From assembly GCA_020722765.1 (NCBI GenBank), contig DYKD01000009.1, forward strand, positions 1,718 through 65,717: a stretch of 64,000 bases of DNA, written 5' to 3'. The notes under the pieces were generated by a model. The model was not told where the DNA came from, did no database searches, and saw only the letters and a program-made list of their open reading frames with translations. A program made the position numbers and the translations under genes. Shown here in pieces: positions 1 through 31,193 of the stretch (positions within the stretch are counted from its first letter, which is position 1; each line of letters opens with the position of its first letter). The DNA comes from Brevinema andersonii. GTDB taxonomy: Bacteria; Spirochaetota; DYKD01.

Positions 1-47
1 TGTTACCGGCAGTGGGCATACGAACCACTGGGTATGGAGGCGTTAAC

Positions 48-218
48 ATGGGTGGATGGGACATCGGTTGGAACGGCGTGGAATGGATTTATTTCTGCAT
101 ATTCTGCGCCGTGATAATGTTCGGAATACTGGTGGTCATATACGAATTCATCAAGGCACACATCAACAGACATGATGCCATCAGGCACCGAATGATGAGA
201 ATACGGGATGACGACTGA
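48..218 (+). CDS. small membrane protein (hypothetical)
   Basis: GGAGG lies 7 nt upstream of the ATG at 48 (track ORF 12..218). Hydrophobic helix WIYFCIFCAVIMFGILVVIY. A terminator follows. Confidence 0.55.
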   Translation: MGGWDIGWNGVEWIYFCIFCAVIMFGILVVIYEFIKAHINRHDAIRHRMMRIRDDD

Positions 219-222
219 ACAA

Positions 223-263
223 ACGGAGCAGAGCCAACTAAAGGCCCTAGCTCCGTCTTTTTT
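223..263 (+). terminator. intrinsic terminator T1
   Basis: ACGGAGC (223-229) pairs with GCTCCGT (250-256), followed by a T-run at 258-263. Confidence 0.7.
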
Positions 264-289
264 AAATATTCACAATGGAGGTATTCATC

Positions 290-490
290 ATGGGTAAGAA
301 GAATCTGGAAGACACTCTGGCATTAGCTGGAGCTACCGCAGGACTTGCATTGGCGAGGACATTGAAGAACATAGGTTCTATTGCGACATCCACAGGAAAG
401 TTCGTGGTTGATTCGACCAAAGGGATTGGCAAAGTAGTCTCAGAATCCGCCAAAACGAACTACCGTGAACTCAAACTCAGGAAGCGGTAA
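290..490 (+). CDS. hypothetical small protein
   Basis: GGAGG lies 8 nt upstream of the ATG at 290 (track ORF 275..490). A terminator follows. Confidence 0.55.
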   Translation: MGKKNLEDTLALAGATAGLALARTLKNIGSIATSTGKFVVDSTKGIGKVVSESAKTNYRELKLRKR

Positions 491-496
491 GAAGAA

Positions 497-531
497 CAGG
501 AGCCAGGTCCAGGACCTGGCTCCGTCTTTTT
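497..531 (+). terminator. intrinsic terminator T2 (CCTGGCTCCGTC family)
   Basis: GGAGCCAGGTCC (499-510) pairs with GGACCTGGCTCC (512-523), followed by GTCTTTTT. Confidence 0.75.
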
Positions 532-554
532 CAAACAAGCACAAGGAGGTTTAT

Positions 555-929
555 ATGGAAATTACCATAGCATTCATCTGTCTTATTGTCATAGGCGTTC
601 TCATGCTGTTCAAACCGGAACCTGACCCGAAAGGGTTGAGCTATTTCAGGTTCAGGATCTGGTTCCCTGACCAGGATTATACATACACGGAGGACTATTG
701 CATGCCGGATGGTCCGGTAGTCCTGTTCGGACGAACCATAGTTCTCAACCTCACAGTGGGAGTCAGACCTGAGATGGTGCATGTATTGGGGGATGAACCC
801 GAGAAACGAGTACACAATCAGGCGACGCTCATCGCACTGGTTGAGGCGGAAACAGACCCGCTAATCAAAATCGCCTATGCACATGGAAGCGGGAATTCCA
901 AGCTCAAAGCCAAATATCCACTTAAGTAA
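555..929 (+). CDS. hypothetical protein with N-terminal TM helix
   Basis: AAGGAGG precedes the ATG at 555 (internal Met of track ORF 465..929). N-terminus is ITIAFICLIVIGVLMLF. Confidence 0.6.
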   Translation: MEITIAFICLIVIGVLMLFKPEPDPKGLSYFRFRIWFPDQDYTYTEDYCMPDGPVVLFGRTIVLNLTVGVRPEMVHVLGDEPEKRVHNQATLIALVEAETDPLIKIAYAHGSGNSKLKAKYPLK

Positions 930-941
930 AGGAGGCAACAC

Positions 942-1307
942 ATGTATGGTATAATGTTCATCACACTTTTCATCGTAATGCTGATAACAACCATAGCATT
1001 ATACGAAGCCATGAGCTCGTCGAAAGCGACAGAATGGCTTGTCCAGCTAATGGATAAGAACGTCCTGCTGGCCGCGGCCGTCAACTTCGGCATTTCCAGC
1101 ATCATCGTACTGTTCACTGGTGAGGGTACCGCATCGGGCGCTGCAAATCTTGCGGCAAGTATCGTATTCCCGACATACTGCGTATTGAAACGCAAAGTAT
1201 TCAAGGTACCATACAGGTTCACATACGGGAAAGGTACGGTGGCTGTCGCCATTGGCATTCTGGTAATCGTCATAGCGGTCATAGTCGCGGCAACCATGAC
1301 CAAGTAA
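942..1307 (+). CDS. multi-pass membrane protein (hypothetical)
   Basis: AAGGAGG SD. Several hydrophobic segments. A terminator follows. Confidence 0.65.
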   Translation: MYGIMFITLFIVMLITTIALYEAMSSSKATEWLVQLMDKNVLLAAAVNFGISSIIVLFTGEGTASGAANLAASIVFPTYCVLKRKVFKVPYRFTYGKGTVAVAIGILVIVIAVIVAATMTK

Positions 1308-1312
1308 GCAAT

Positions 1313-1350
1313 ACGGAGTCGGGACTTCCAAGTCCTGGCTCTGTCTTTTT
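1313..1350 (+). terminator. intrinsic terminator T3 (CCTGGCTC family)
   Basis: 15-bp stem ACGGAGTCGGGACTT/AAGTCCTGGCTCTGT containing 3 G-U pairs, followed by CTTTTT. Confidence 0.8.
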
Positions 1351-1377
1351 CAAATAATACTTTAAGGAGGTCCAAGT

Positions 1378-1752
1378 ATGGACACTATTATCCTCCCTCA
1401 GAACGATGAACGCCTGGAATTCAGGTTCCGCGTTCATGTAAAGAACAACATGGTCGGTTACGTTGAAGTACGTGACATCGGGCTCCATGGCTATCAGTCC
1501 TGCTCTTACAGGGTCTTCAAATCAACGAAGAATCCAGGTGAAATCTTCACAATGGGCAAACTGGAATACCAGTACAACGGGGCGACAAAGAGCCTCGGGT
1601 ACGCCTCCAAGGACAGGAAGGCATACATCAACAAGGTACTTCAGGAAAACATCGACCTTATCCTTTCAGGCACAGCAAGCCCGTCAACGAGTTCCGCTCC
1701 ATCCAAAGTGGTGGTCAGTGCCGATGATGAGCTGTTAGAGGAGCAAGCGTAG
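1378..1752 (+). CDS. hypothetical protein
   Basis: TAAGGAGG SD. 124-aa ORF. A terminator follows. Confidence 0.65.
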   Translation: MDTIILPQNDERLEFRFRVHVKNNMVGYVEVRDIGLHGYQSCSYRVFKSTKNPGEIFTMGKLEYQYNGATKSLGYASKDRKAYINKVLQENIDLILSGTASPSTSSAPSKVVVSADDELLEEQA

Positions 1753-1758
1753 GCATAT

Positions 1759-1801
1759 CCGGGTCAGGATTCCAACAAGGAATCCTGGCTCGGTCTTTTT
1801 T
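1759..1801 (+). terminator. intrinsic terminator T4 (CCTGGCTC family)
   Basis: 15-bp stem CCGGGTCAGGATTCC/GGAATCCTGGCTCGG containing 2 G-U pairs, followed by TCTTTTTT. Confidence 0.8.
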
Positions 1802-1832
1802 AGGAAAGAATCCAACTAAAAGGAGGTTCACC

Positions 1833-2339
1833 ATGAGTGAACAGATACAGAAAGCGGTTGAGCAGGCGAAAGCCCAGGAACAGTCGACACGTCAGGCAAT
1901 CAGCAAAGCGCATGGCCAGAAGAAGGATATCAATCTCACCCTCAAGGAAGCGTCAAAGAAGGTTGTCCTTCACATCAAGGGCGGAATGGAGAAAGCGTCG
2001 GTCTGGTATGAGGAATACATGTTCCATACCATGGCGGGAGGTGCCGTTATAGGTTCCACCATGATGATAGTGGCGAACATCCTCGCCGTCAAGTACGGCA
2101 TTACTGGCACCCTTGTAGCATTGTATGTGACAGGTGGATGGGTGCTGTTGGCTCCATTCCTATTCGCAATATTGTACTTCGCAGCCAAGCTCACAATCAA
2201 ACTGGTACGGGCAGCAGTCAATGGGATCAGGAAAGCGCACGCACATGGCCCGGTACTGAAGAAAGCCATTGACGAGAAGATTGAAGAGCTTAAGGTCAAA
2301 CTCGAGAACGGAGTTGACCCTACAGCAGAAACTGCATAA
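1833..2339 (+). CDS. hypothetical membrane protein
   Basis: AAAGGAGG SD. Polar N-terminus followed by 2-3 hydrophobic helices. A terminator follows. Confidence 0.65.
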   Translation: MSEQIQKAVEQAKAQEQSTRQAISKAHGQKKDINLTLKEASKKVVLHIKGGMEKASVWYEEYMFHTMAGGAVIGSTMMIVANILAVKYGITGTLVALYVTGGWVLLAPFLFAILYFAAKLTIKLVRAAVNGIRKAHAHGPVLKKAIDEKIEELKVKLENGVDPTAETA

Positions 2340-2355
2340 CCATTTCCAACTAAGT

Positions 2356-2397
2356 AAGCCGGTAGCCACCCAGTGGCCGCTACCGGCTTGTTTTTTT
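2356..2397 (+). terminator. intrinsic terminator T5
   Basis: AAGCCGGTAGC (2356-2366) pairs with GCTACCGGCTT (2379-2389), followed by a T7 run. Confidence 0.8.
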
Positions 2398-2418
2398 GCC
2401 TGAAGAAAGGTGTAGGAA

Positions 2419-2703
2419 GCGGGGCGGGAGCCCCGCGTAGATGGGAAGGGCCCCATATCCGGATGGACAGTATCACGGGACAACCGAAGTGTGGACGGAA
2501 CGGTCACCAACCATGGGAAGGGACCCATAACAGATCTGCCGGCGCCATAAACAATGGACTGGTAAGGGAATTGTTGCGGGCCGGGAGATTTGGAGCACGG
2601 GCAGGGACCCGTGCGGGCGCAGGATCTCCAAGTGGAGAACCTGGCGCGGGCATTCTTGAATGACGCGCAAGCACAGAGGATGATAGTCGGGCAGGGCCCC
2701 GAC
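2419..2703 (+). repeat. array of five GC-rich stem-loops with a conserved purine-rich loop (candidate structured RNA or protein-binding array)
   Basis: Hairpins lie at 2419-2436, 2441-2456, 2513-2528, 2595-2614 and 2686-2703. Stems end in GGG/CCC. Loops are CGGGAG, AAGGGC, AAGGGA, CAGGGA and CAGGGC. The region has no SD-led ORF. Confidence 0.6.
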
Positions 2704-2733
2704 GTTAAAACTTAGTCTTAAGGAGGTTACACC

Positions 2734-3033
2734 ATGGAAAATGTACGCATGTTCTTCGGAACAGTGGAGTGGTCAGATTCCGAGCTGACAGCCATCGACA
2801 TACCGGCATTCGGAAGGCTCATGATTGACACGGTAGGAAAGCTGGAAATCAGGGCCGGCCAGAAAATCGGAGGCTGGATAGACGAACGGTTGCTGGCTGA
2901 AACGGAGCGCGGACATATTGCTGACATGAGTGTCATAGGTTATCTGGACGGGAAATATGTCCCGTTCAATGCCATGAGATTCGTGGCACAATGTGAAACC
3001 GAGGCGATTGCCAAATCGGCGCTTGAAGACTGA
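2734..3033 (+). CDS. hypothetical protein
   Basis: TAAGGAGG SD. 99-aa ORF. Confidence 0.65.
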   Translation: MENVRMFFGTVEWSDSELTAIDIPAFGRLMIDTVGKLEIRAGQKIGGWIDERLLAETERGHIADMSVIGYLDGKYVPFNAMRFVAQCETEAIAKSALED

Positions 3034-3040
3034 ACAGTAG

Positions 3041-3067
3041 GTCCCCCTGCTTTGGGAACAGGGGGAC
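3041..3067 (+). terminator. terminator-like hairpin with a weak U-tract
   Basis: GTCCCCCTG (3041-3049) pairs with CAGGGGGAC (3059-3067). The downstream sequence is only TTACAAC. Confidence 0.35.
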
Positions 3068-3538
3068 TTACAACTAAAGGTACCCCCTTTCCAAGGGCCC
3101 GCTAACAACAACATCATCCAGGCATTTCCCTGTAGGGAAAACCGGATCTGATTGTCATAAAGGAACCATTCATGCCTTCTGTTAACGATAACGGAAGCTA
3201 CCCCCCGTAGAATGGCTCCTTTAGGGTGTTTAGTGGCATTATACGTTGGGTACGAAAAAATTCACGCAAATCATCCATCCTATACCATATGACATACCGT
3301 TAATGCATATGTTATGGGATATACGCCTGTTCCATATGGGATAACTGGGAATAGGATGTTTCCGGCGCCTTTAAAATGGGTATTTTAAGGCCTTATACGG
3401 GCATCGCAGACGGAATTTCACCTTATCACACTCGTGCGATACGAACCATATTCCCTTGAGGAATTATCATACTCATATGGTTTGCACACTGGCTTGTATA
3501 TCACCATTATCCTATGTGAAATAGGAAAGGAAGGAAAC

Positions 3539-3871
3539 ATGAACATATTAGATATGGCGTTGAAACGGGCTTCAATATCTGTTACTCGGCGCCTCAATAA
3601 GGCCATCGACGGGACGGCGATACGGGTGGAGAGCGTATGCGAGCGCAATGGCGAGGTCATAGTGACGTTGCTTGTGACATCACTGGCGGTTACGATAGTA
3701 TACTCGTATGTCACGGGACAATGGGAAACCACCTCGATATTCGTCGCATGGATGGTCAGCGCAAGCATCGATATAGGTGGTTCCGTATTGAGTGCGGCGG
3801 CATGGCGCAAAATAAAGGAGTATATGAATGAACATCAACGACGCAATGGAACAGCTCCGCAACCAGCCTAG
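3539..3871 (+). CDS. hypothetical membrane protein
   Basis: GGAAAGGAAGG precedes the ATG at 3539 (internal Met of track ORF 3434..3871). Two hydrophobic segments. Confidence 0.5.
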   Translation: MNILDMALKRASISVTRRLNKAIDGTAIRVESVCERNGEVIVTLLVTSLAVTIVYSYVTGQWETTSIFVAWMVSASIDIGGSVLSAAAWRKIKEYMNEHQRRNGTAPQPA

Positions 3872-4121
3872 TACCGGCAGGCTGCGTTCGATGAGATTCA
3901 TCGACGGAGAACTCATGGAACAGAACCAGAAGAAGGACAGCTACTTCGCAAGGTTCGCAAGACATAACCAGGAATATTTCCTGGCCTGGCTGATACCGTT
4001 CGACAACAGCCAATGGAAACTCTATCTTCATGATGGCAAACAGACAATCAGGGTGGACGGTACGAATCAGGAAAAGATAACATTCCTGAAAAACAAGTCA
4101 CTTCACGTCATCGGAGAATGA
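3828..4121 (+). CDS. hypothetical protein
   Basis: AAAGGAG SD. 97-aa ORF. Confidence 0.6.
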   Translation: MNINDAMEQLRNQPSTGRLRSMRFIDGELMEQNQKKDSYFARFARHNQEYFLAWLIPFDNSQWKLYLHDGKQTIRVDGTNQEKITFLKNKSLHVIGE

Positions 4122-4172
4122 CCGGAAACGGCCGCTATGGCAGGTAATGGATCATATAAACCCCCATTCCGG

Positions 4173-4218
4173 CGGAATCAGGCTCCTTCCAACATGGGAG
4201 CCTGGCTCCGTCCTTTTT
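4173..4218 (+). terminator. intrinsic terminator T6 (CCTGGCTCCGTC family)
   Basis: CGGAATCAGGCTCC (4173-4186) pairs with GGAGCCTGGCTCCG (4197-4210), followed by TCCTTTTT. Confidence 0.75.
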
Positions 4219-4244
4219 GAATATCAGAATAGAAGGAGGTTCTT

Positions 4245-4412
4245 ATGGCACGACAGGATGATGCACAGCTCACCATTGATGAGTTCGAGGCGGAACTGGA
4301 AGGTGACAGGATGGCCGACTTTCAGGATTTCCGCATGGAAATGACCGTTCCGGGTGAGACCCATACGCTCGATGAATGGTACGAAATACTTGATGTTTGG
4401 CTGGTAAAATAA
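4245..4412 (+). CDS. small acidic protein (55 aa, below the track cutoff)
   Basis: AGAAGGAGG SD precedes the ATG at 4245. Translation is MARQDDAQLTIDEFEAELEG...; stop TAA at 4410-4412. Confidence 0.5.
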   Translation: MARQDDAQLTIDEFEAELEGDRMADFQDFRMEMTVPGETHTLDEWYEILDVWLVK

Positions 4413-4423
4413 GGAGGTATATC

Positions 4424-4708
4424 ATGGAATTGGACATGAGAATCAGGAAATTCCGTGACATGTCACTGGAGCTTATCAGGAACGGTTTCAGACTGATGAC
4501 ATACCAAGTGGCAGGTAATGCTACACGCATGGCCAAATTCGTATCCGATGAGGATGTACATTATCTCATCGACGACGGAGAAACAGTGAAGTTCCTGTCC
4601 GCGGATGACAAGGATGACATCGATACCATCATGTCATTCGAGACGGTAGCGCAAGAATTTGAGCACTACGAGATGGGCGGAAGAACAGTTTTCGCATTCA
4701 ACCAATAA
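4424..4708 (+). CDS. hypothetical protein
   Basis: AAGGAGG SD precedes the ATG at 4424 (internal Met of track ORF 4397..4708). Confidence 0.6.
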   Translation: MELDMRIRKFRDMSLELIRNGFRLMTYQVAGNATRMAKFVSDEDVHYLIDDGETVKFLSADDKDDIDTIMSFETVAQEFEHYEMGGRTVFAFNQ

Positions 4709-4721
4709 GCACTAAGTTGTA

Positions 4722-4755
4722 GGTATACCGGGGCGGAGGAATCCGCCCGGATACC
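4722..4755 (+). other. GC-rich imperfect hairpin after a CDS, without a U-tract
   Basis: GGTATACCGGGGCGG-aggaat-CCGCCCGGATACC. Confidence 0.35.
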
Positions 4756-4942
4756 ATCATTAAATTCCCTGACAGGTAAACGGTTCAGCTCATAAATGTT
4801 CCTACCGATGGAATCGATGGGATCGGTGCCATTTATGATATCATAGGTACCGACGAGGTTAACATGAAGGAAAGCCGGCAAGTCGCTGGTAGCTTCCCCG
4901 AGGAATAACGTCATGATACTAAAAGAAATAGGAGGAATCACC

Positions 4943-5377
4943 ATGGGAATGTATACGGAACTGAAACTCAATGTCGAACTTAAGCAGGATGTTCCAGATG
5001 AAGTAATTCATATATTGGAATACATGCTCGACGATTCGGCTCACCAACCACCATTACCTGACCATCCGTTGTTCAAGACCGCAAGATGGAGCAGGATGCT
5101 ACACTGTGGTTCACCGTACTTTAATACGCCGACCTATTCTGAACTGCTGCACGAGGACTCGACATATGTCCTGAACATACAGTGCAACTTCAAGAATTAC
5201 GACGATGAAATCGACAAGTTCCTTGACTGGCTACGGCCACATATACAGACCGAAGGCATAATAGGCCATCATTGGTATGAGACGGATGATGAACCGACGG
5301 CAATATGGAATATGTGCCAAGACGTCGTCTCTGAAGATTTGAGTCTGGAAAAACATACCATCGTGGAGGAAGTGTGA
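4943..5377 (+). CDS. hypothetical protein
   Basis: AGGAGG SD precedes the ATG at 4943 (internal Met of track ORF 4913..5377). Confidence 0.65.
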   Translation: MGMYTELKLNVELKQDVPDEVIHILEYMLDDSAHQPPLPDHPLFKTARWSRMLHCGSPYFNTPTYSELLHEDSTYVLNIQCNFKNYDDEIDKFLDWLRPHIQTEGIIGHHWYETDDEPTAIWNMCQDVVSEDLSLEKHTIVEEV

Positions 5378-5586
5378 TGAGCACGCAGAATATATTCATC
5401 GAAAAGGCATCATTCGAGGCACTACATACGGAGAGCGTGCTCGTAAGTACGCTGCTGGACAGCAACCTGACGCGCAAGATGAGATGGCGATACCAGGATT
5501 ACCTGGCAGCCATCCACCGGCGCATGAAGGAATTACAAGGAGGTCGAGATGGAATTCAAGCTACTGATCGCAACACTGCTGGTTGA
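5374..5586 (+). CDS. hypothetical protein
   Basis: ATGA start/stop overlap with the upstream gene. Confidence 0.5.
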   Translation: MMSTQNIFIEKASFEALHTESVLVSTLLDSNLTRKMRWRYQDYLAAIHRRMKELQGGRDGIQATDRNTAG

Positions 5587-5920
5587 GACCTGTCTACTCA
5601 TAATGCGTAACCAGGTATCATCGTTCCTATATGAACAAACGGTACAACATGCAGCTGACGTACCGATCAGACGGGAACGGATAAACTGGCTCGTTCCAAG
5701 CGTATTGCTGACCCTGTTATATACCGGTTTGCTGATTGGAATACTGTTCACAAGGATATGGTGGTTTGCAATCATCATCTTTGGGCTATCAGTCATCACC
5801 TCCAGATTCATGAACAAGGCAGAAACATTGCAGGAAATAAAGGATATTGCGCTATTTGATAACCTCATCAGTATTCTCATCACATTTATTGCGATGATAA
5901 TACTAAAGGAGATATCATGA
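5549..5920 (+). CDS. hypothetical membrane protein
   Basis: AAGGAGG SD. 3-4 hydrophobic helices. Confidence 0.6.
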   Translation: MEFKLLIATLLVETCLLIMRNQVSSFLYEQTVQHAADVPIRRERINWLVPSVLLTLLYTGLLIGILFTRIWWFAIIIFGLSVITSRFMNKAETLQEIKDIALFDNLISILITFIAMIILKEIS

Positions 5921-5926
5921 GCAGCT

Positions 5927-6130
5927 ATGAAAGAATGTCCTCATTGCAATGGTTTCGGCTCATCATTCAAGGATCCGGAAGGAGTAGACCACTGCACAAT
6001 GTATGACTGTTCAGGCCTAATAAAGGATGAAACCAAAGGAGAACCAGATGGAACACATATACCATGGCGACCGGAAGATCGCCGAAAAGGAGGACGAGGA
6101 TTATCGTCAGGAAGTGACATTCCTGCTTGA
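5927..6130 (+). CDS. small zinc-finger protein (CxxCxGxG)
   Basis: Contains a CPHCNGFG DnaJ-type Zn-finger motif. The SD is weak and the 3' part overlaps the next ORF. Confidence 0.45.
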   Translation: MKECPHCNGFGSSFKDPEGVDHCTMYDCSGLIKDETKGEPDGTHIPWRPEDRRKGGRGLSSGSDIPA

Positions 6131-6338
6131 AGACAGGGAAGAAAACTTCCTGTTTGAAGAGCAAACATGTATCCATGGAAACCCGTTGGCATATCCTTGT
6201 CCTGACTGCGCGGTCGAAAGACTGGCGCATGGAACAAAGAGGAACGAGGAGAAAATCCCATTAAGGAGGTTAGATGAAAGTCATGCAAAATCTGCGTCAT
6301 ATTTATCTGAAATGGAAGATGCGGAAGACACTCAATGA
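6048..6338 (+). CDS. acidic hypothetical protein
   Basis: AAAGGAG SD precedes the ATG at 6048 (internal Met of track ORF 6027..6338). Confidence 0.5.
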   Translation: MEHIYHGDRKIAEKEDEDYRQEVTFLLEDREENFLFEEQTCIHGNPLAYPCPDCAVERLAHGTKRNEEKIPLRRLDESHAKSASYLSEMEDAEDTQ

Positions 6339-6477
6339 TATTGCCAGAACAGCTTTGTCACTGGCTAAAGAACCGGATAACGCGAAGAAGGCTGCCAAGC
6401 TGAGCAAGCTGTTATCCGCAAAACACCTGAAAGCAATCAACAGACTAATGTCAGATATTACGATACCAAAGGAGTAA
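6274..6477 (+). CDS. hypothetical basic protein
   Basis: AAGGAGG SD. 67 aa. Confidence 0.5.
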   Translation: MKVMQNLRHIYLKWKMRKTLNDIARTALSLAKEPDNAKKAAKLSKLLSAKHLKAINRLMSDITIPKE

Positions 6478-6514
6478 ATATAAAGAAGAAATGACATCAG
6501 AATAAAGGAGGTCT

Positions 6515-6577
6515 ATGATGAAGCGTAAAAAGTTATCCAAACTTGCCCGCAGATTCATCAGGAGATTCCTATCATGA
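6515..6577 (+). CDS. 20-aa Arg/Lys-rich peptide ORF
   Basis: AAAGGAGG SD. Translation is MMKRKKLSKLARRFIRRFLS. Too short to be confident it is coding. Confidence 0.3.
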   Translation: MMKRKKLSKLARRFIRRFLS

Positions 6578-6695
6578 GATATGGGCGGCGCTCCGGTGCC
6601 GTCCTTCCTCTTGAATTCCATGTCTTCCTAGTGAAGACCGACCAACAACCTGGCGCAGTCATTTTCAGACGTTATAACGTATTAAGGAGGTCCAT

Positions 6696-7166
6696 ATGGA
6701 CAACAAAATCATGGTCGAGAAGACCGAAAGAATCGAGCTCGATGTCTCATCATTTGAAAGCTCGGTAAGTGTCAGTTTCAGGTCATATCCAGATGACAAG
6801 AAACTCGGTTTCGCAAACGTCACTTACAAGAACGCATTTGGTGGAACAGAGACAAAACGCCTTACAGTATGGAAGAACCGTGATGGTTCTCCAAGAATAG
6901 GCTGGATCAAGACATACGATGGTTATACCACCAGTGTCTACAAACCGACTGATCCTGAGAAGTCGAAGTTCATCAATCCATCGGAAGGAAGTATCGACAG
7001 TATGACAAAATCAATTATCGATTACTTCGTGTTCAAAGCTGTGGCCGATGTCAAACAGCACATTGCTCCCAAACCCAGCACCAAACCGGCGAAGAAGATG
7101 GTGGATAATGCCGTTTCATCGAAGGATCTGCAGGATAGTCTGGAAGAAGCTTCAAAATCAGCCTAA
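6696..7166 (+). CDS. hypothetical protein
   Basis: TAAGGAGG SD. 156 aa. Confidence 0.65.
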   Translation: MDNKIMVEKTERIELDVSSFESSVSVSFRSYPDDKKLGFANVTYKNAFGGTETKRLTVWKNRDGSPRIGWIKTYDGYTTSVYKPTDPEKSKFINPSEGSIDSMTKSIIDYFVFKAVADVKQHIAPKPSTKPAKKMVDNAVSSKDLQDSLEEASKSA

Positions 7167-7170
7167 AGTA

Positions 7171-7206
7171 ACGGGGCATAGGGAAACCTATGTCCCGTCT
7201 TTTTTG
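7171..7206. terminator. bidirectional intrinsic terminator between convergent genes
   Basis: 12-bp stem ACGGGGCATAGG/CCTATGTCCCGT with a GAAA loop, a T-run downstream and an A-rich stretch upstream. Its 23-bp core recurs at 18588-18610. Confidence 0.8.
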
Positions 7207-7227
7207 GTTGAGGGCTTGAACTGCGGG

Positions 7228-7494
7228 TTATCTGACCTCTATCATCCGCGGTTTCTTCTCTTCCGCAGTAGGCATGTCAACTTCCAGCATACCATCCTCA
7301 TATTTGGCTGTAATGCGTGTCTGGTCTACATCGGTTGGCAGGAGGCGTCTGAATATTATACCATTGTCCCTGATACTGACAGTTATGGCATTGTTCCGGA
7401 CGCTTACCTCTATGTTCTTCTTCCCGATACCGGGAAGCGGTAGGGAAAGCTTGCCATCGGAATAGTCATAATTCCACATAGTTCCAAATATCAT
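7228..7494 (-). CDS. small heat-shock protein (Hsp20/alpha-crystallin domain, unusually short)
   Basis: LPLPGIGKKNIEVSV...FRRLLPTDVDQTRITAKYEDGMLEVDMP matches alpha-crystallin-domain (ACD) hallmarks. AAGGAG lies 8 nt upstream of the ATG (plus-strand CAT at 7492-7494). Confidence 0.75.
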   Translation of the reverse strand: MIFGTMWNYDYSDGKLSLPLPGIGKKNIEVSVRNNAITVSIRDNGIIFRRLLPTDVDQTRITAKYEDGMLEVDMPTAEEKKPRMIEVR

Positions 7495-7498
7495 AATC

Positions 7499-7527
7499 TT
7501 GACTCCTTGGAAAATTATGCACATAAT
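7499..7527 (+). promoter_or_regulatory. sigma70-like promoter TTGACT-17-CATAAT
   Basis: -35 at 7499-7504, -10 at 7522-7527. It points toward the gene starting at 7624. Confidence 0.45.
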
Positions 7528-7553
7528 ATAATGCCGGGCACACTGTAAATCAA
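7525..7553 (-). promoter_or_regulatory. sigma70-like promoter TTGATT-17-TATATT for the sHSP gene
   Basis: On the minus strand, -35 corresponds to plus 7548-7553 and -10 to plus 7525-7530. Its -10 overlaps the -10 of the + strand promoter. Confidence 0.5.
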
Positions 7554-7575
7554 GGCATCGAACCATATTGCCTTG
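7551..7575. promoter_or_regulatory. 7-bp inverted repeat (candidate operator or 5'-UTR hairpin)
   Basis: CAAGGCA (7551-7557) and TGCCTTG (7569-7575). The repeat overlaps the -35 of the sHSP promoter. Confidence 0.35.
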
Positions 7576-7623
7576 GCACGCCTGGAGATGGTGCGGCCAA
7601 TTATCATTCGATCAGGAGATCCA

Positions 7624-7980
7624 ATGGACATAGATGATATACCGGTCGGAATACCGTTGATGATGAACTGTCATATATTTTTCCATCATCTACCGAATAA
7701 GCCTGTCAAATGCTGGCTTGAAGTCAATCCCAATGCTCCATTCAACAGGATAATAATACTCGATGATCCGAATTTAGGCGGCCATAATTGCACCATGTCT
7801 GGTAAAGACGCTTTTGTAGACTACGTACGTAGCAAGTACGGTAACATCACAGGAAGATGCATTTGGGCAAATGGACCCATATCTGGGATAGAAGTCTACT
7901 TTCCAGACGGAAAAGCCAGGGAGGAAACGCCAGAAATTTCCAATTCGCTGTCATTGGAAGGACGAATAGACATCTTATGA
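7624..7980 (+). CDS. hypothetical protein
   Basis: AGGAG lies 5 nt upstream of the ATG at 7624 (internal Met of track ORF 7573..7980). Confidence 0.55.
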   Translation: MDIDDIPVGIPLMMNCHIFFHHLPNKPVKCWLEVNPNAPFNRIIILDDPNLGGHNCTMSGKDAFVDYVRSKYGNITGRCIWANGPISGIEVYFPDGKAREETPEISNSLSLEGRIDIL

Positions 7981-8008
7981 TAATGCGGACAAAATTAAGG
8001 AGGTAAGG

Positions 8009-11480: not shown

Positions 11481-11758
11481 CCAATGATGACATCTCTTTG
11501 GTAAATATCGTATCGGTACTTACCCCCGAACAGAAAGCTGTTTTTGATAACAGCGGGCTTCACAAGGTCGTGGAAACATTCGGTACTAAGGAAGACAATG
11601 TCACAGTCCTAAAGACTGAGTTGGGCAATCTGGTAATAGCCGAGAATCTCAGGCATATCATACCGGTGAAAATAAATATGGATTTAAGGCATCCTGTACT
11701 CATGCTTGGCGCTTTCAGATGGAGGATATTCGACGACGGAATAGAAATTCATATCTAG
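11477..11758 (+). CDS. hypothetical protein
   Basis: ATGA overlap with the RNase H gene. 93 aa. Confidence 0.55.
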   Translation: MTNDDISLVNIVSVLTPEQKAVFDNSGLHKVVETFGTKEDNVTVLKTELGNLVIAENLRHIIPVKINMDLRHPVLMLGAFRWRIFDDGIEIHI

Positions 11759-11766
11759 GAGGCAGT

Positions 11767-14406
11767 ATGATCGTCCATGTTGACGGAACTGCGATAGACA
11801 TATCCCGGACAAGAAATACCAAGGACAATTTGCTCATTGTCATCAAGGTAACCGGGAACATAGTCAGAAACTATGAGCTGGAAGTGGTAGATTATAAGGC
11901 TATGACTAGCCGATCTACGGTTGAATTTGCCCCAATCCATATGGATTCCAAAGGCAATATCATCGTCAATAATCATGTTGTCATAACCGAAGACAATCTA
12001 ATAAGACTTAACGATGGAACATTCGAGAACTCAGCAATAACGAACGAATTCAATGCTCAGAAGATATTGAATAGAACAATCATAGATAATCCTATCTATG
12101 GCGCACTATTCTTGGCTATTACAGGAAAGGAACCTGAATCTATCAACATGTTATCTCTCAATGATGTAAATGAGATCATCAGTAATAGGGACATTATACC
12201 TAAGATCTGGAATGTCAAATATAAAGGTCTCCATATATGGCGTCTTAATCAGAGAGAAGAATATGTATATCAGGCTGTACTCAGAAAAGTTTACCAGATG
12301 GTATTTGAGAATCTAACAGAATCAAGGCTCAAGTATGCCATACGAAAACTGAATCTTTCCAAACAGGAAGCTATCTTCAACAAGCATCAGGCAATTGCAG
12401 CAAGCCATAAGGTTGATATCCCATGGGAAGCTGGCATGATAAACATGCTGGAATATGATGCCAATCTGATCCCTAATGATACCCCGCAGAACGGAAACGC
12501 AGGTCTGGTTGTCGCCAAAGTCTATAAGGAACAGAATGGAAAACGTTTCTCATATCTTCAGTGGATAAACCAATGGGCTGAAAACTGCTCCCCTAACCGG
12601 CAGATTGTAGCTAGATATGTCACTCAGATTTGCGAACTTACAAACCGGAACTTCAAGGACAATCTTGTCAACCTCTTCGCTGCCAGAATGACATACATGG
12701 GATATACGCTAGAAGATGGTTGCGTCATATCTGAAACAACCGCCGAGAAATTCAGATGTTACGACATCAATATTGACAGGTTCATAGTCCGCAATCCAAA
12801 ACTGACGGTCCAACCTCTCGCCAATTTCGACGCATACATGTACGAATACCTGATACAGGATGATGCGCCATTTGTCAACAGGGGTTACCTTGGAACATAT
12901 AATGGTGATAACGAAATCAGAAGCAAATATTATGGCATAGTCACCAATATTGACATAACAGAAACGGAAATCGAAGGTGAATACCTGGTCATTGTCGAGA
13001 CCACATCAGTATTGAGATTACGTGAAGGGGATAAGTTAGCTGATTTGCATGGCAACAAAGTCACAGTAACAAAGATACTGCCTAGTGAACTGATGCCAAG
13101 AGCTTGTGGTAAATATCTTGATATCATTGTCCCACCATGGATTGGCAAACGCGGTTCTGCAAGCAGACTGAAAGAAGAGGAACATTCAACGGTTCATAAT
13201 GTCGCAGTAGTGACAGATTCCCTGAATGACACATTCTATCAGGATGTGGCGGTAGGTCATGTGACCTATATCCGGTTAAGCCAGCATGCAAAGAAGAAAC
13301 TCAACTATAGCCATAAGACAGAAACCAATTATATGGGGCTGGTACCTAAAGGTTATGGGTTGTACAGTTTTGCAGATGCAATGTACCACATGGAAGCGGT
13401 TGGTGCCAAAGACCTGATGATGGAAATCCTAAATAGGACATATGATACAAACAGTCCAGAACTCCTGAATCAGCATCTCAAATGCTTCGGCTTCGAACTG
13501 ATAAAGGGTAGAATTACAGGGCTTTCAAAGACCCCATTCTTCACTGCTCCTGATAATGATATTATCCTAGACAAATTCGTTAATGCTGAAGAGATTGCAA
13601 CACTTGCAGATCCTACCGGTACGGTCCTTGATCCTAGAATATTATATTCTCATTCATGGATAAGAATACCTGAAGGATTACAGCTGACTTTCCATGCCCT
13701 TACCTCGCAATTACGTATCCACAGCTATGACCATGAATATGTGACACACAAGCTGGTAGATGATATGAGCTGGATGAAACGCTATGATATAAGTTTCGGC
13801 CATCTGATGACAGATGGTAAGAAACAGGTATTCATCCGCATACCTCCCGGATTGCGGACATGGACAACGAAGACAGATACAGTGACCTTATCAGATATTC
13901 AGCATCAGTTAAACCAGCTGATAATGCAATTGAAGACATATGAGCAGACAAGGTTCAGGGCCATGCAATTTGATCCTTCAAGACGAATCAATATGCTCGT
14001 GAACAAGCTGTTGGATTCGATGCTGTCAAGAATATTCACGAAATCAGGATTACTCCGCAACACCATCCATCCAAGAACAAAGTTCTCCATGAATGCGGTA
14101 TTAGGCTCGAATCCTGAACTTCCACTTGACACATGTGAAATCCCATTAGAAGCATTCCATGATTATCTCAAAGATGAGGAATTCCGCAAAGCATATGGAC
14201 TAAGTGAGATAGAAGACCCTGACATAGGCGAGATTAATTTCGCCATTGAAAAGATGGATGCAAGATGCCTCGTAATGAGAAATCCTGCACATCAGGTAAG
14301 GAACTGCCAAGGAATGCGATTTAGAGTATGGGCTGGAAATTCAATCAGGATAAATCCGGCAATCGTCAAAGTCTTCGATAAACAAAACAATCTCCGTATG
14401 TGTTGA
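11767..14406 (+). CDS. single-chain beta/beta-prime-like RNA polymerase, 5' exon (raw ORF; the last ~11-17 codons are probably intronic read-through)
   Basis: AGGAGG SD. Beta motifs: MGYTLEDGCVISE, GDKLADLHGNKVTVTKILPSELMP...DIIVPPWIGKRGSASRL and FADAMYHMEAVGA. These are followed by the beta-prime motif RNPAHQVRNCQGMRFRV...IRINP. Confidence 0.8.
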   Translation: MIVHVDGTAIDISRTRNTKDNLLIVIKVTGNIVRNYELEVVDYKAMTSRSTVEFAPIHMDSKGNIIVNNHVVITEDNLIRLNDGTFENSAITNEFNAQKILNRTIIDNPIYGALFLAITGKEPESINMLSLNDVNEIISNRDIIPKIWNVKYKGLHIWRLNQREEYVYQAVLRKVYQMVFENLTESRLKYAIRKLNLSKQEAIFNKHQAIAASHKVDIPWEAGMINMLEYDANLIPNDTPQNGNAGLVVAKVYKEQNGKRFSYLQWINQWAENCSPNRQIVARYVTQICELTNRNFKDNLVNLFAARMTYMGYTLEDGCVISETTAEKFRCYDINIDRFIVRNPKLTVQPLANFDAYMYEYLIQDDAPFVNRGYLGTYNGDNEIRSKYYGIVTNIDITETEIEGEYLVIVETTSVLRLREGDKLADLHGNKVTVTKILPSELMPRACGKYLDIIVPPWIGKRGSASRLKEEEHSTVHNVAVVTDSLNDTFYQDVAVGHVTYIRLSQHAKKKLNYSHKTETNYMGLVPKGYGLYSFADAMYHMEAVGAKDLMMEILNRTYDTNSPELLNQHLKCFGFELIKGRITGLSKTPFFTAPDNDIILDKFVNAEEIATLADPTGTVLDPRILYSHSWIRIPEGLQLTFHALTSQLRIHSYDHEYVTHKLVDDMSWMKRYDISFGHLMTDGKKQVFIRIPPGLRTWTTKTDTVTLSDIQHQLNQLIMQLKTYEQTRFRAMQFDPSRRINMLVNKLLDSMLSRIFTKSGLLRNTIHPRTKFSMNAVLGSNPELPLDTCEIPLEAFHDYLKDEEFRKAYGLSEIEDPDIGEINFAIEKMDARCLVMRNPAHQVRNCQGMRFRVWAGNSIRINPAIVKVFDKQNNLRMC

Positions 14407-14798
14407 CATCAGACCAAAAGTGTTATCTAATATGAGTATCCAGAACTAAGGAGACTCATATGAGAAAGTATTTTACTGGTCGGAAGTACAACAAGAACTT
14501 CTTTAACCAAATCGATTCAAAGGAGAAAGCCTGAAACTTCAAGATATATTCTATGCAGAACCTCCAAAATTCAGGTTAAAGAGGAAAGAGATTAAGTTTC
14601 AACTGTCGAAGTAAAATCCTTCTCAAACGGTGAATCCCCACTTAAATGAGGGCAACGCCGTACCAAAACCCATAGGAATATGGATAATGGTCTATCGACT
14701 TATAGGACTCCAGAACGGAGTTACTAGGAGGCTTTCAAGCCTAAATGAAGGACATCCGAAAGGATGAAGGAATAGTCAGTGCCACTAGTAATAGTGGG
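14356..14798 (+). mobile_element. putative self-splicing (group I-like) intron in the RNAP gene; outer bounds of two candidate 426-nt solutions
   Basis: A ~370-nt ORF-poor gap splits a conserved motif. GNRA-capped hairpins: CATCC-GAAA-GGATG at 14752-14765 and CCACTA-GTAA-TAGTGG at 14782-14797. Long-range pair CCTGAA/TTCAGG at 14529-34/14569-74. Candidate U/G splice pairs are 14355/14781 or 14372/14798. Confidence 0.6.
14459..14533 (+). pseudogene. possible remnant of a LAGLIDADG-type homing endonuclease ORF inside the intron
   Basis: An AAGGAG SD (sequestered in hairpin 14429-14460) precedes MRKYFTGRKYNKNFFNQIDSKEKA*. By my recollection this resembles the ..FF..ID.EEKAYWLG lead-in of LAGLIDADG enzymes, and it stops right where the motif would start. 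Confidence 0.3.
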
Positions 14799-15666
14799 GA
14801 ACATGGGTGATTTCGATGGCGATACTGCGATTGGATACTTTCCAATAAGCAAAGAGGCAATGGAAGACCTGAAGAAATTCACATTGGAAGACCATATCAG
14901 ACATTTTATAACAGAGAAAGACCTGAAAGGATTCAGGATATTACCGACACTACGCCAGAATGATATGTCTATCCGACGATGGTACAAGCACAATACGGGC
15001 ATATCAGAGACTAAGAAAGATCTTGTGGCTCGTTATGGAGAAGCCAAAGCTGCTAACTTCAACAAGCTGTATAATGCAGAATATTCACCAGAAGAACTGT
15101 TCGACATGCAGAAGGATGCAGCTGGTGAATTCAGTTACATGAAATCAGGAACTGCGAATGCCGGCAATATTGGTAACCTGTTACGCAACCTGATGTACAA
15201 GGAACATGGGATGACCGGTATCAAGGTCGCCAACCACGTATATCATGTGCTAGCCCAAGCGGCACTGGATTGCAAGAATTCACTGACTGATAGGGCGAAA
15301 CTGGATACCGCATTCATGGCTTTCAGAAGTTACAAGATGGATAAGCCGACATTCGTGGAAGCGCTAAGTCCATACTTTAAGGACATAATAATAGACACAC
15401 TATGGAAGGTTCTGACAAAGAACGGACGATGGCAGGGAAACATAACAAGCGTGATAGCAAGGAACATGCCGATAGCCCACATAGTGAATGCTGGCAAAGT
15501 ATCAGACCTGTATCTTGCCGCGCTGAATACCAAACTAGGGAAGAAGGAAGGAAGTTTCGTCGAGTATCTGACTGAATTCATCCATCCTCGCAACGATCTG
15601 ATGATTAAGAAAACACTGACTAAGGAAGAGGACATAGTGATCCTATCCACGGACGACGAACCATAA
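14779..15666 (+). CDS. single-chain beta/beta-prime-like RNA polymerase, 3' exon (raw ORF)
   Basis: PLVIVGNMGDFDGDTAIGY matches the universal NADFDGD Mg-binding loop. AGNIGNLLRNLMY resembles the bridge helix. There is no SD or ATG at the ORF start. Confidence 0.8.
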   Translation: MPLVIVGNMGDFDGDTAIGYFPISKEAMEDLKKFTLEDHIRHFITEKDLKGFRILPTLRQNDMSIRRWYKHNTGISETKKDLVARYGEAKAANFNKLYNAEYSPEELFDMQKDAAGEFSYMKSGTANAGNIGNLLRNLMYKEHGMTGIKVANHVYHVLAQAALDCKNSLTDRAKLDTAFMAFRSYKMDKPTFVEALSPYFKDIIIDTLWKVLTKNGRWQGNITSVIARNMPIAHIVNAGKVSDLYLAALNTKLGKKEGSFVEYLTEFIHPRNDLMIKKTLTKEEDIVILSTDDEP

Positions 15667-29339: not shown

Positions 29340-30568
29340 ATGGGCAAGGCTGGGAAATCACTGCTTGATCCTGCTACTGAGGAGATTTCCGGCACAGAAG
29401 CCCTACCTGCTAAGAAGATACAGAAACAGATCTACCGTAAGATAGAGGATCTGTATGATTTTGTGTCTACAGGTGTCCCTGTCATGTTCGTACATGACAG
29501 GGACATCCGGGGTTTCTTCTGCACGGACAATACGAAAATCGGGATCGGACCACTATTGGATACACATAAGATCTATATGATGTCACAAGGTTTCAGCATG
29601 ATCTCGATCGAGAAACAGAAATTGGCGAATCATACCATCAAGTTCACTGAAGTGAACGCGCCGGATGAGATAGGAACAATGTCACCAATAACGAATCCGG
29701 CACTGGGCCTGGATTATTTCCTCGACAAGATGCCGACAAAAATTGTAGGTGAAACAACAGATGCAGTCCTGGTTTTGTCATATGATCCGGATATAATCAA
29801 TGACAATAACAAGATAACAGGCACCTTAAGGGACCATTATAATGATATGGTCATGACGATCCAGCGTGACATCGTGAAAAGACGACCAAACCAGCACGTT
29901 AACACAAGGAATAGTCCTACACTACATACATCAGTGGGAGAATATGATCCAGGCTCAAACGATGGAACGCCAGAATCCATTCCTTCTAGAGTTGTGATAA
30001 TATTGAGTTCGAGACCGCAATTACCTCCAAGGCTAAATGGTTATTGTCTCAATGTTGGCACAATCATCAGACATTTGGTCTCGAATACGAAAGGTGAAAA
30101 CAGGTTACCACATAGCCTGACAAGTAGCCTCACCACTACTGAAATACTATTGGCACAAAGGTTATATGATACATCGGCTGATGATGCGAAAGTAAAACGC
30201 TTCAGAAAAGCGGTATTCACTTCCAATAATGTCATTGAAGACATTACTGATTATCCGTCCATGAAAGACATAGGCGGGTATGATAACCTGAAAGCGTTCA
30301 TCGAAACTAGGAAGACATTGCTTGATAAGTACTATAATAAGATGCTGGAACGTAATCTGCAGATCAAAGGTATCTTCATTGCAGGTGTTCCAGGATCCGG
30401 TAAAACCCAGATATTGAAAGCCCTAGGTTCCTACTGGGGATTGCCGGCATACCGTTTACGGCTAGAAGCGGTCTTCGGCAGATATGTCGGAGATTCGGAA
30501 AGTGCGCTGATTTCGGCGCTGGAAAACCTGCAGAAACTGTCCCCTTGCTTCGTATTATTGGATGAGAT
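29340..30568 (+). CDS. classical-clade AAA+ ATPase (CDC48/FtsH-like module), 5' exon
   Basis: Walker A GVPGSGKT, then YVGDSE, then Walker B FVLLDEI at the exon end. The raw ORF runs on to 30596. Confidence 0.8.
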
Positions 30569-31193
30569 TAAATTATCAGTCTCCTTGGCGGCGTGAGCCG
30601 TCATGAAAAAGCGGGTCAATTGCTGGAAACCCCTTAAGCCTATTAGGCTACAACATAATCCGCAAGGATAAGTGTGAATGCTTGAAAACTAATAGGATTG
30701 GACAATCAGCAGCCACTTCCTGGGAACAGGAAAGGTTCAGAGACTACGAGTCCGCTAAGTTGGCAGCCAGCTTCTTCTAGTAGATAATATACTAAATACT
30801 AGAAGGAGTAGGCTATGATGTATAACATTGTACAAGCATCAAAGATGCTAAACAGAAGCAAACGAGAAGCTGTACTAGAACTAGATAATAATGAATGTCA
30901 GTTATGTGGCGATGACCAAGATTTGGTCGTACATCATATAGATGAGAAAAGCAGTAGAAATTCAGATACTCCAAATAATAGTTTGGATAATCTGATTACG
31001 CTCTGTAAACAATGTCATTATTATTGTCATTGGCATACTAGATTTAATGCTATTAAGCATAAAATTCTAGTTATTGCCGACAAGTTCAAGTTATTTATTA
31101 GTGATCAACTTAAAGATATAGTCCGAACTCGTATGAGAATACGAGAGGATGGCAGAAATGACCATCCAGCCGGATAACCGGTGTTAACAGTTG
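30569..31193 (+). mobile_element. group I intron carrying an HNH homing endonuclease
   Basis: R element GTTCAGAGACTAC at 30735-30747. S element AAGATATAGTCC at 31113-31124. P7 pairs GACTA with TAGTC. P1 pairs GAGAT (30564-68) with GTCTC (30579-83), with a U-G at the splice site. P10 pairs TTATCA (30573-78) with TGATAA (31194-99). The terminal intron G (omega-G) is at 31193. There are several GNRA hairpins. Confidence 0.85.
30815..31177 (+). CDS. HNH homing endonuclease (intron-encoded)
   Basis: CQLCGDDQDLVVHHID...NLITLCKQCHYYCH. GGAG SD. AT-rich relative to the flanks. Confidence 0.85.
   Translation: MMYNIVQASKMLNRSKREAVLELDNNECQLCGDDQDLVVHHIDEKSSRNSDTPNNSLDNLITLCKQCHYYCHWHTRFNAIKHKILVIADKFKLFISDQLKDIVRTRMRIREDGRNDHPAG

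Follow-up and report, generated by a model that had tools for sequence, protein, structure and literature searches.

Conserved AGGG-loop hairpins at a single locus of a large uncultivated phage, a probable array of protein-binding sites

The early region of a large uncultivated phage contains an apparently non-coding block with a conserved array of small hairpins that has not been described before. Four of these have a 12-nucleotide core in common; they exceed what chance provides, their outer stems covary, all of them face one way, and they are kept at the same locus in a distant relative of the phage. Because the same hairpins are found at the same place in this relative, we propose that the AGGG hairpins are probably repeated docking sites for a protein, most likely on RNA. 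In the reading that we prefer, to which we assign a probability of roughly 0.45, the block is a strand-specific non-coding RNA hairpin array that binds one protein several times, as a leader or as a decoy; the active RNA form, the protein binding and its consequences are what we infer from the pattern described below.

The stretch of DNA that was analyzed (64,000 nucleotides; hereafter the window) corresponds to the early and replication part of the phage genome. All of its genes are on the + strand, and they encode a two-barrel RNA polymerase (Rpb2_6), a family B DNA polymerase, a primase-helicase, RecA, an SbcC-like protein, ClpP and a Clp ATPase. A DNA search of the region against deposited phages gave no match, and tblastn of the phage polymerase against 50,697 deposited phage records gave none at E <= 1e-5; the polymerase and the 168-aa gene upstream of the block each have one divergent relative among 5.8 billion proteins. 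The genes upstream of the block are small and several are followed by an intrinsic terminator. The block lies between the stop of one gene (1833–2339), coding for a membrane protein, and the start of the next (2734–3033). The membrane-protein gene has a strong intrinsic terminator (2347–2398, + strand; stem AAGCCGGTAGC/GCTACCGGCTT, then a run of seven T residues), and the hairpin block starts 21 nt past it. At its 3’ limit are the ribosome-binding site TAAGGAGGT and ATG (2719–2736, + strand) of the downstream gene, a 99-aa orphan for which the searches found no relative. No sigma-70-like promoter is predicted on the + strand within 2340–2733, nor between the terminator and the hairpins, and no terminator is recognized 3’ of the last hairpin. 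Since no such promoter is seen and the block lies downstream of a strong terminator, its transcription is assumed.

An earlier note on this DNA had described five related hairpins in a GC-rich block (2419–36, 2441–56, 2513–28, 2595–2614 and 2686–2703). All five are present at these coordinates in the 64-kb window, and the block is indeed more GC-rich than its flanks (0.585–0.61 over 2401–2700 vs about 0.44–0.52), with a + strand that is rich in G and poor in T. The proposed relationship holds for four of the five, which have in common the 12-mer GGG-(A/C)AGGG(A/C)-CCC and are supported by motif scan, fold and covariation. These are, on the + strand, AGGG-loop copy 1, ATGGG-AAGGGC-CCCAT (2441–2456); copy 2, ATGGG-AAGGGA-CCCAT (2513–2528), which differs from copy 1 by one base; copy 3, GCACGGG-CAGGGA-CCCGTGC (2595–2614); and copy 4, GTCGGG-CAGGGC-CCCGAC (2686–2703), which ends 15 nt 5’ of TAAGGAGGT. 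The motif spacings are 72, 84 and 90. The first hairpin of the block, GCGGGG-CGGGAG-CCCCGC (2419–2436, + strand), is of a different type and is not an AGGG-loop copy: a C-G pair closes its loop to a GGGA tetraloop on seven pairs, and it is predicted at -15.8 kcal/mol as RNA.

The sequence GGGMAGGGMCCC has four exact matches in the 64 kb (2443, 2515, 2599 and 2689), all on the + strand and all within the block, where 0.01 are expected by chance; none of 100 dinucleotide shuffles reaches four, and the control with shuffled sequences that the earlier note had called for thus leaves the motif count far above background. When up to two mismatches are allowed in the 12-mer, nothing above chance is found outside the block in the 64-kb window, and a pattern scan of the window for NAGGGN-loop hairpins with at least four stem pairs returns the four copies and three weak unrelated ones. 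The block has a far more stable fold than shuffled sequences on either strand (z of -4.09 on + and -4.82 on -), and all of the motif hairpins are present in its minimum-energy fold. Two further + strand structures are predicted from the fold. One (2550–2575; stem AACAAT/ATTGTT) is the apical part of a long hairpin at 2531–2592; it is not conserved in the relative, and its apical loop holds an extra AAGGGA (2564–2569) that lacks the GGG/CCC closure. The other is the hairpin GCGCAGGATCTCC-AAGT-GGAGAACCTGGCGC (2617–2647), whose 3’ arm is the 9-mer ACCTGGCGC (2639–2647). A GGAGAT/ATCTCC helix, once placed around the fourth hairpin, does not appear; these segments pair elsewhere in the predicted fold, within the hairpins at 2531–2592 and 2617–2646.

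Seven copies of the motif hairpin, four from the window and three from the relative, represent two independent lineages, and were aligned on the loop and analyzed for covariation. In all seven, the three G-C pairs and the A-G-G-G of the loop are invariant, which accounts for ten of the 12 core positions; the base that opens the loop is A or C, and the one that ends it is A, C or G. Stem length is 5–7 bp (8 in copy L001b, which has a G-T pair) and the loops 6 nt (4 in one copy). The fourth and fifth pairs from the loop are formed in 7/7 copies, yet by three to four different pair types (AU, UA, GC and CG), and the covariation score of 0.537 compares with 0.130 in shuffles, of which 0/500 reach it; the signal vanishes once the partners are slid. 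The covariance check on the two phages agrees with the prior description of a conserved GGG/CCC and loop with compensatory changes in the outer stem, and as there are only two lineages the covariation rests on seven copies, some of them perhaps recent duplicates. When these seven were used to build a covariance model and 96 kb comprising the window and the related loci were searched with it, no others scored at E < 0.01.

These comparisons indicate that the hairpin is selected as a hairpin, and because complementarity is kept where the sequence is free, they point to a folded single strand rather than to a site that is read in the duplex. All seven copies have the same orientation, with AGGG on the coding strand. 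The predicted stabilities of the motif hairpins as RNA range from -5.0 to -12.4 kcal/mol, whereas the two weakest have only -2.5 and -2.8 kcal/mol as DNA, such that extrusion from the duplex is unlikely.

The sole divergent relative in the collections searched is IMG/VR UViG_3300037225_000815 (loci L001, L024, L224 and L292). Its polymerase is 59% identical to that in the window and the upstream flanking membrane protein 26% identical. It carries three copies of the hairpin (in L001/L224), GGGGG-CAGGGG-CCCCC, GCTGGG-CAGGGA-CCCAGC and GCGGG-CAGGGA-CCCGC, directly 3’ of the homologous membrane-protein gene and its terminator, which is at the same position as in the window (L024 4517–4543). The hairpins, when sought in related genomes, are thus present at the same locus in one distant relative, and these three are the only GGG/CCC-closed hairpins of this kind in 20.5 kb of that phage. 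The spacers of the two phages have no common word of at least 8 bases except the motif; the copy number differs (four vs three, with spacings of 31 and 77 in the relative), as does the distance from the last hairpin to the next gene (30 nt in the window vs about 400 nt). It is the upstream gene with its terminator that is the conserved neighbor, and the downstream gene (2734–3033) is not conserved in the relative; given this and the unequal distances, direct control of its translation is unlikely.

Several other features of these two genomes are of note. The 9-mer ACCTGGCGC occurs at 2639, 6648, 11022 and 16360, always on the + strand, always intergenic and never on the - strand (~0.24 expected per strand), and may serve this phage as a promoter, an operator or a signal for processing. 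The relative has near-identical terminator-like hairpins, ACTGCGCCAGG-loop-CCTGACGCAGT, right after stop codons (L001 3690, 5258 and 5613; L024 2585–2608), and the 3’ arm CCTGACGCAGT resembles ACCTGGCGC(AGT) of the window. There is also a second non-coding region of about 400 nt in both phages (window 3034–3433; L001 779–1175), which the orphan gene 2734–3033 parts from the hairpin block in the window but which is continuous with the block in the relative; alignment of the window’s second region with the long spacer of the relative shows no convincing similarity.

Other contigs with these loci are essentially identical either to the window phage or to its relative, and the near-identical copies from other samples (L028, L223, L225 and L226) add only two single-base differences. 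Profile scans in which the polymerase and a neighboring 121-aa protein were run against viral contigs recovered the same contig again, plus one 27%-identical giant-virus match for the polymerase. Locus L002 was rejected as a relative, as it shares only one gene and its weak covariance-model match sits inside a 2102-aa ORF. Scans of viral, metagenome and genome collections for a pattern of two hairpins gave roughly 280 matches, mostly GC-rich coding repeats, tandem repeats or possibly CRISPR-like arrays, and none of these is related to the phage by tblastx. Two of the loci, L050 and L239, were set aside for their lack of homology to the phage. In the second of these, an unrelated low-GC viral contig (IMGVR_UViG_3300029940_000003), two TGGG-AAGGGA-CCCA hairpins (L239 2226–2275) are intergenic and lie just upstream of a 463-aa gene but in the orientation opposite to it; this pair could be a duplex operator or a coincidence.

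With Rpb2_6 and, in the 1162-aa version of the relative, also Rpb1_2, both on one chain of about 1160 aa, the polymerase belongs to the two-barrel type; YonO of SPbeta is a single-chain two-barrel polymerase (PMC5467207), and the phage enzyme is likewise a single chain with two-barrel domains. Its gene is split in the window (11719–14406 and 14779–15666) and is a single 1162-aa ORF in the relative (L001 10004–13492). The ~370-nt insert (14407–14778) overlaps a sub-threshold match to a group I intron (14568–14798; 37.9 bits, E 3.9e-8 in a 601-base Rfam search), and in view of this match within the split gene it is probably a second such intron. The other group I intron (30559–31145; Rfam RF00028, 65.1 bits, gathering 50) lies directly after an AAA ATPase-like ORF (29340–30596) and contains ORF 30815–31177. 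Pfam matches among the 64 small ORFs of the window include ClpP, dUTPase, a dCTP-deaminase-like domain and dGTP_diPhyd_N. The last of these (dATP/dGTP diphosphohydrolase) has been linked to phages in which 2-aminoadenine takes the place of adenine, and the match hints at modified phage DNA.

Among the alternative explanations, it is very improbable that the block codes for protein. ORF 2373–2663, or another frame, would then specify a Gly/Arg-rich repeat protein in which the motif is the peptide WEGP/RAGT, or GKGP/GQGP in the next frame. The four motif starts in the window do share one codon phase, with spacings that are all multiples of 3 (chance about 1 in 27), and the collection scans recovered many collagen-like repeat genes in which this 12-mer codes for Gly-Gln-Gly-Pro. 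However, the codon score of the ORF (-0.146) is below those of all 14 neighboring small genes (+0.04 to +0.36; wrong frames about -0.3 to -0.9), its GTG start codon lies within the terminator stem and is not preceded by a ribosome-binding site, the GQGP frame contains stops, no Pfam match is attributable to the ORF, and the outer stems covary as base pairs. Moreover, no ORF in the relative matches it and no + strand ORF spans the hairpins there, where the three copies (657, 688 and 765) fall in different codon phases. The ORF looks non-coding, and the doubt that the earlier note had expressed about it is upheld by the codon score, the GTG start and the missing counterpart. We also consider it doubtful that the hairpins are generic structural elements (REP-like or GC-cluster-like) with no dedicated protein, acting as an mRNA stabilizer, terminator back-up or insulator and maybe akin to arrays in Clostridiales. 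This would suit a block that is GC-rich relative to its genome and whose hairpins are not equally many or equally spaced in the two phages, and non-coding GC-rich hairpin arrays with variable outer stems are found in Clostridiales MAG SIG372 and Bacterium D16-76. But it leaves unexplained an invariant AGGG loop and GGG/CCC closure in two phages with a flanking protein at 26% identity; the bacterial arrays have variable triloops in both orientations, 7–8 nt apart, and no homology links those bacteria to the phage. REP/BIME palindromes, which are dispersed and alternating, were rejected because the motif is confined to a single cluster in each phage (64 kb and 20.5 kb examined), with all of its copies in one orientation.

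Two explanations act at the level of DNA. In one, the hairpins are extruded as single strands from supercoiled or replicating phage DNA and serve as promoters for the phage polymerase or as priming or origin signals. The early promoters of phage N4 have a 3-nt loop on a 5–7 bp stem with a conserved GC-rich core, and are present as three copies in the early region with the inner stem and loop conserved and the outer stem free but paired; the bases at -11, -10, -8 and +1 are specifically recognized and a spacer of A residues sets the start (PMC4496689). The array described here has the same architecture (PMC4496689), with few copies, an early location and a polymerase of the phage’s own, and since both follow the logic of a conserved core and an outer stem whose sequence is free but which stays paired, we retain this explanation as an unlikely one. 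It gains from the position of the array directly behind a terminator, the place at which a further transcription unit would be expected to start, from the want of a sigma-70-like promoter, and from the presence of a phage-encoded primase-helicase. Nonetheless the loops are of 6 nt rather than 3, and no conserved tract or fixed-distance start signal lies 3’ of the seven hairpins; in these features the N4-type promoters suggested previously fail. The polymerase that is seen is Rpb2/Rpb1-like and not of the T7-like N4 type, the structural half of the genome being outside the window. The low stability of the weakest copies as DNA is poor for extrusion, it would be unusual to find three to four promoters in 130–300 bp without intervening genes, and the motif is at one locus, yet the upstream genes on the same strand also need promoters. 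An origin is not supported, with no AT-rich unwinding region and, in the GC-skew check that had been proposed, no turn at the block, which is the most GC-rich part of the region; the iterons that the earlier note had raised are not supported either, the spacings (72/84/90 and 31/77) not being helically phased and complementarity in variable outer stems not being expected of sites recognized in duplex DNA. The other DNA-level explanation, a double-stranded operator array in which a phage transcription factor would recognize the 12-bp GGGMAGGGNCCC, present three to four times near a promoter, we regard as quite unlikely. The ten invariant positions of 12 are an operator-sized footprint with partial dyad symmetry, and the sites cluster in a long intergenic region where they adjoin ACCTGGCGC, the recurrent 9-mer and possible promoter or operator element. 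However, the variable positions outside the 12-mer are complementary in every copy, which a protein reading the duplex would not need, the center is asymmetric and its orientation always the same, and the spacings in the two phages have no common helical phase.

Returning to an RNA array that binds protein, each copy would present the same face, in which three G-C pairs close a hexaloop with an unchanging AGGG, and the sequence of the outer stem would be free provided that it pairs. Each copy would likely bind one unit of the same RNA-binding protein, of phage or host origin, and the three to four copies would gather several units on one RNA. The array could then work as a decoy by titrating the protein; alternatively it could be a platform, tagging the early transcript for stabilization, processing or read-through. 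Multiple copies are typical of titrating (sponge) RNAs or cooperative platforms, and a single nut-like site would not need them. Of the proposals made in the earlier note, a structured leader or non-coding RNA with repeated protein-binding hairpins is the best supported, with covarying stems in one orientation that are stable as RNA but marginal as DNA and are kept in the relative with the 26%-identical flanking protein; its boxB-like flavor is not supported, there being no boxA, hexaloops, and three to four copies. A point against the choice of the RNA strand is that both strands of the block fold equally well, and Pfam identifies no recognizable RNA-binding regulator among the window’s 64 small ORFs. 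When hairpins with a specific loop are repeated, they usually betray a protein dedicated to binding them as nucleic acid, and the lineage in which they occur here has no cultured relative; an RNA decoy or platform would point to a new RNA–protein pair in early infection, and if the hairpins were read as DNA, hairpin promoters would extend beyond the N4 group to another class of polymerase. The 12-nt core with its pairing rule provides a compact, testable handle as a bait (e.g. GCACGGGCAGGGACCCGUGC), a reporter or a search model.

The block was also compared with known RNA elements, including the Rfam scan that the earlier note had recommended. In positions 1–8000, at E values up to 10, no family matches the block, and the only match at its edge (DnaX, 2333–2391, 16.8 bits) is on the terminator and far below threshold; at the gathering score, the only match in the whole window is a group I intron away from the block, and locus L024 of the relative has no Rfam match. 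Three other candidates were set aside: an ANTAR dual-hexaloop target, as G stands at loop position 4 but only 2/7 copies have A at position 1 and no terminator overlaps the second hairpin; a CRISPR array or repeat mimic, as only the 12-nt core is shared while outer stems and spacings vary; and a G-quadruplex, as the GGG tracts are engaged with CCC in hairpins that covary.

The triloop arrays of Clostridiales MAG SIG372 (L166, L204 and L218) and Bacterium D16-76 (L215), which surfaced in the two-hairpin scans, are dense and non-coding, with units NNNGGGGC-NNN-GCCCCNNN whose outer stems vary and which are interleaved with other repeated hairpin units; one adjoins a 5S rRNA gene and another gives a match to the Rfam family Clostridiales-2 (28.5 bits vs a threshold of 58.6), a family with no match to the phage block. 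They resemble it as non-coding short hairpins with a conserved G/C core, variable outer pairs and, in some, AGG or GGA loops, and differ, besides the triloops, orientation and close packing already mentioned, in being at many loci.

A lambda-type nut site consists of boxA and a boxB hairpin that is bound by N. The phage block is similar in that its small GC-closed RNA hairpins have a purine-rich loop and belong to an early operon with many terminators. It differs in its hexaloops, which are not GNRA-like pentaloops, in its three to four copies as against one per operon, and in its position after the terminator rather than ahead of it. No boxA (CGCTCTTA-like) is matched with up to one mismatch between 1509 and 8654, and Pfam identifies no N-like protein, such peptides being too short and divergent for profile searches. 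With no boxA near the block, hexaloops, and several copies, the nut site is not supported as a model.

The sponge RNAs CsrB and RsmZ have many hairpins with A(N)GGA loops that titrate CsrA/RsmA. The block shares with them several small hairpins that present the same purine-rich loop on one non-coding RNA with variable stems and spacers. The AGGGA of 4/7 loops fits A-N-GGA, and the 19 GGA triplets in the block are the highest count of any 334-nt stretch in the 64-kb window (13.0 +/- 2.3 in shuffles, 4/500). On the other hand, 3/7 loops end in GGC or GGG and not GGA, the invariant feature is AGGG with its GGG/CCC closure rather than GGA, the block of the relative has no GGA enrichment, no Csr/Rsm family of Rfam matches, and the block has no recognized promoter or terminator of its own. 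The CsrB/RsmZ sponges fit only partly, and with three loops devoid of GGA, no enrichment in the relative and no Csr/Rsm match, the binding partner is probably a protein other than CsrA. A literature search found no phage-encoded example of such a decoy or sponge RNA. We attach a low probability to the more specific proposal that the phage makes a decoy RNA that soaks up a host RNA-binding protein during infection, either a CsrA-like regulator or an RNA-sensing defense protein; the array would in that case be a viral counterpart of CsrB/RsmZ with its own AGGG hexaloop code.
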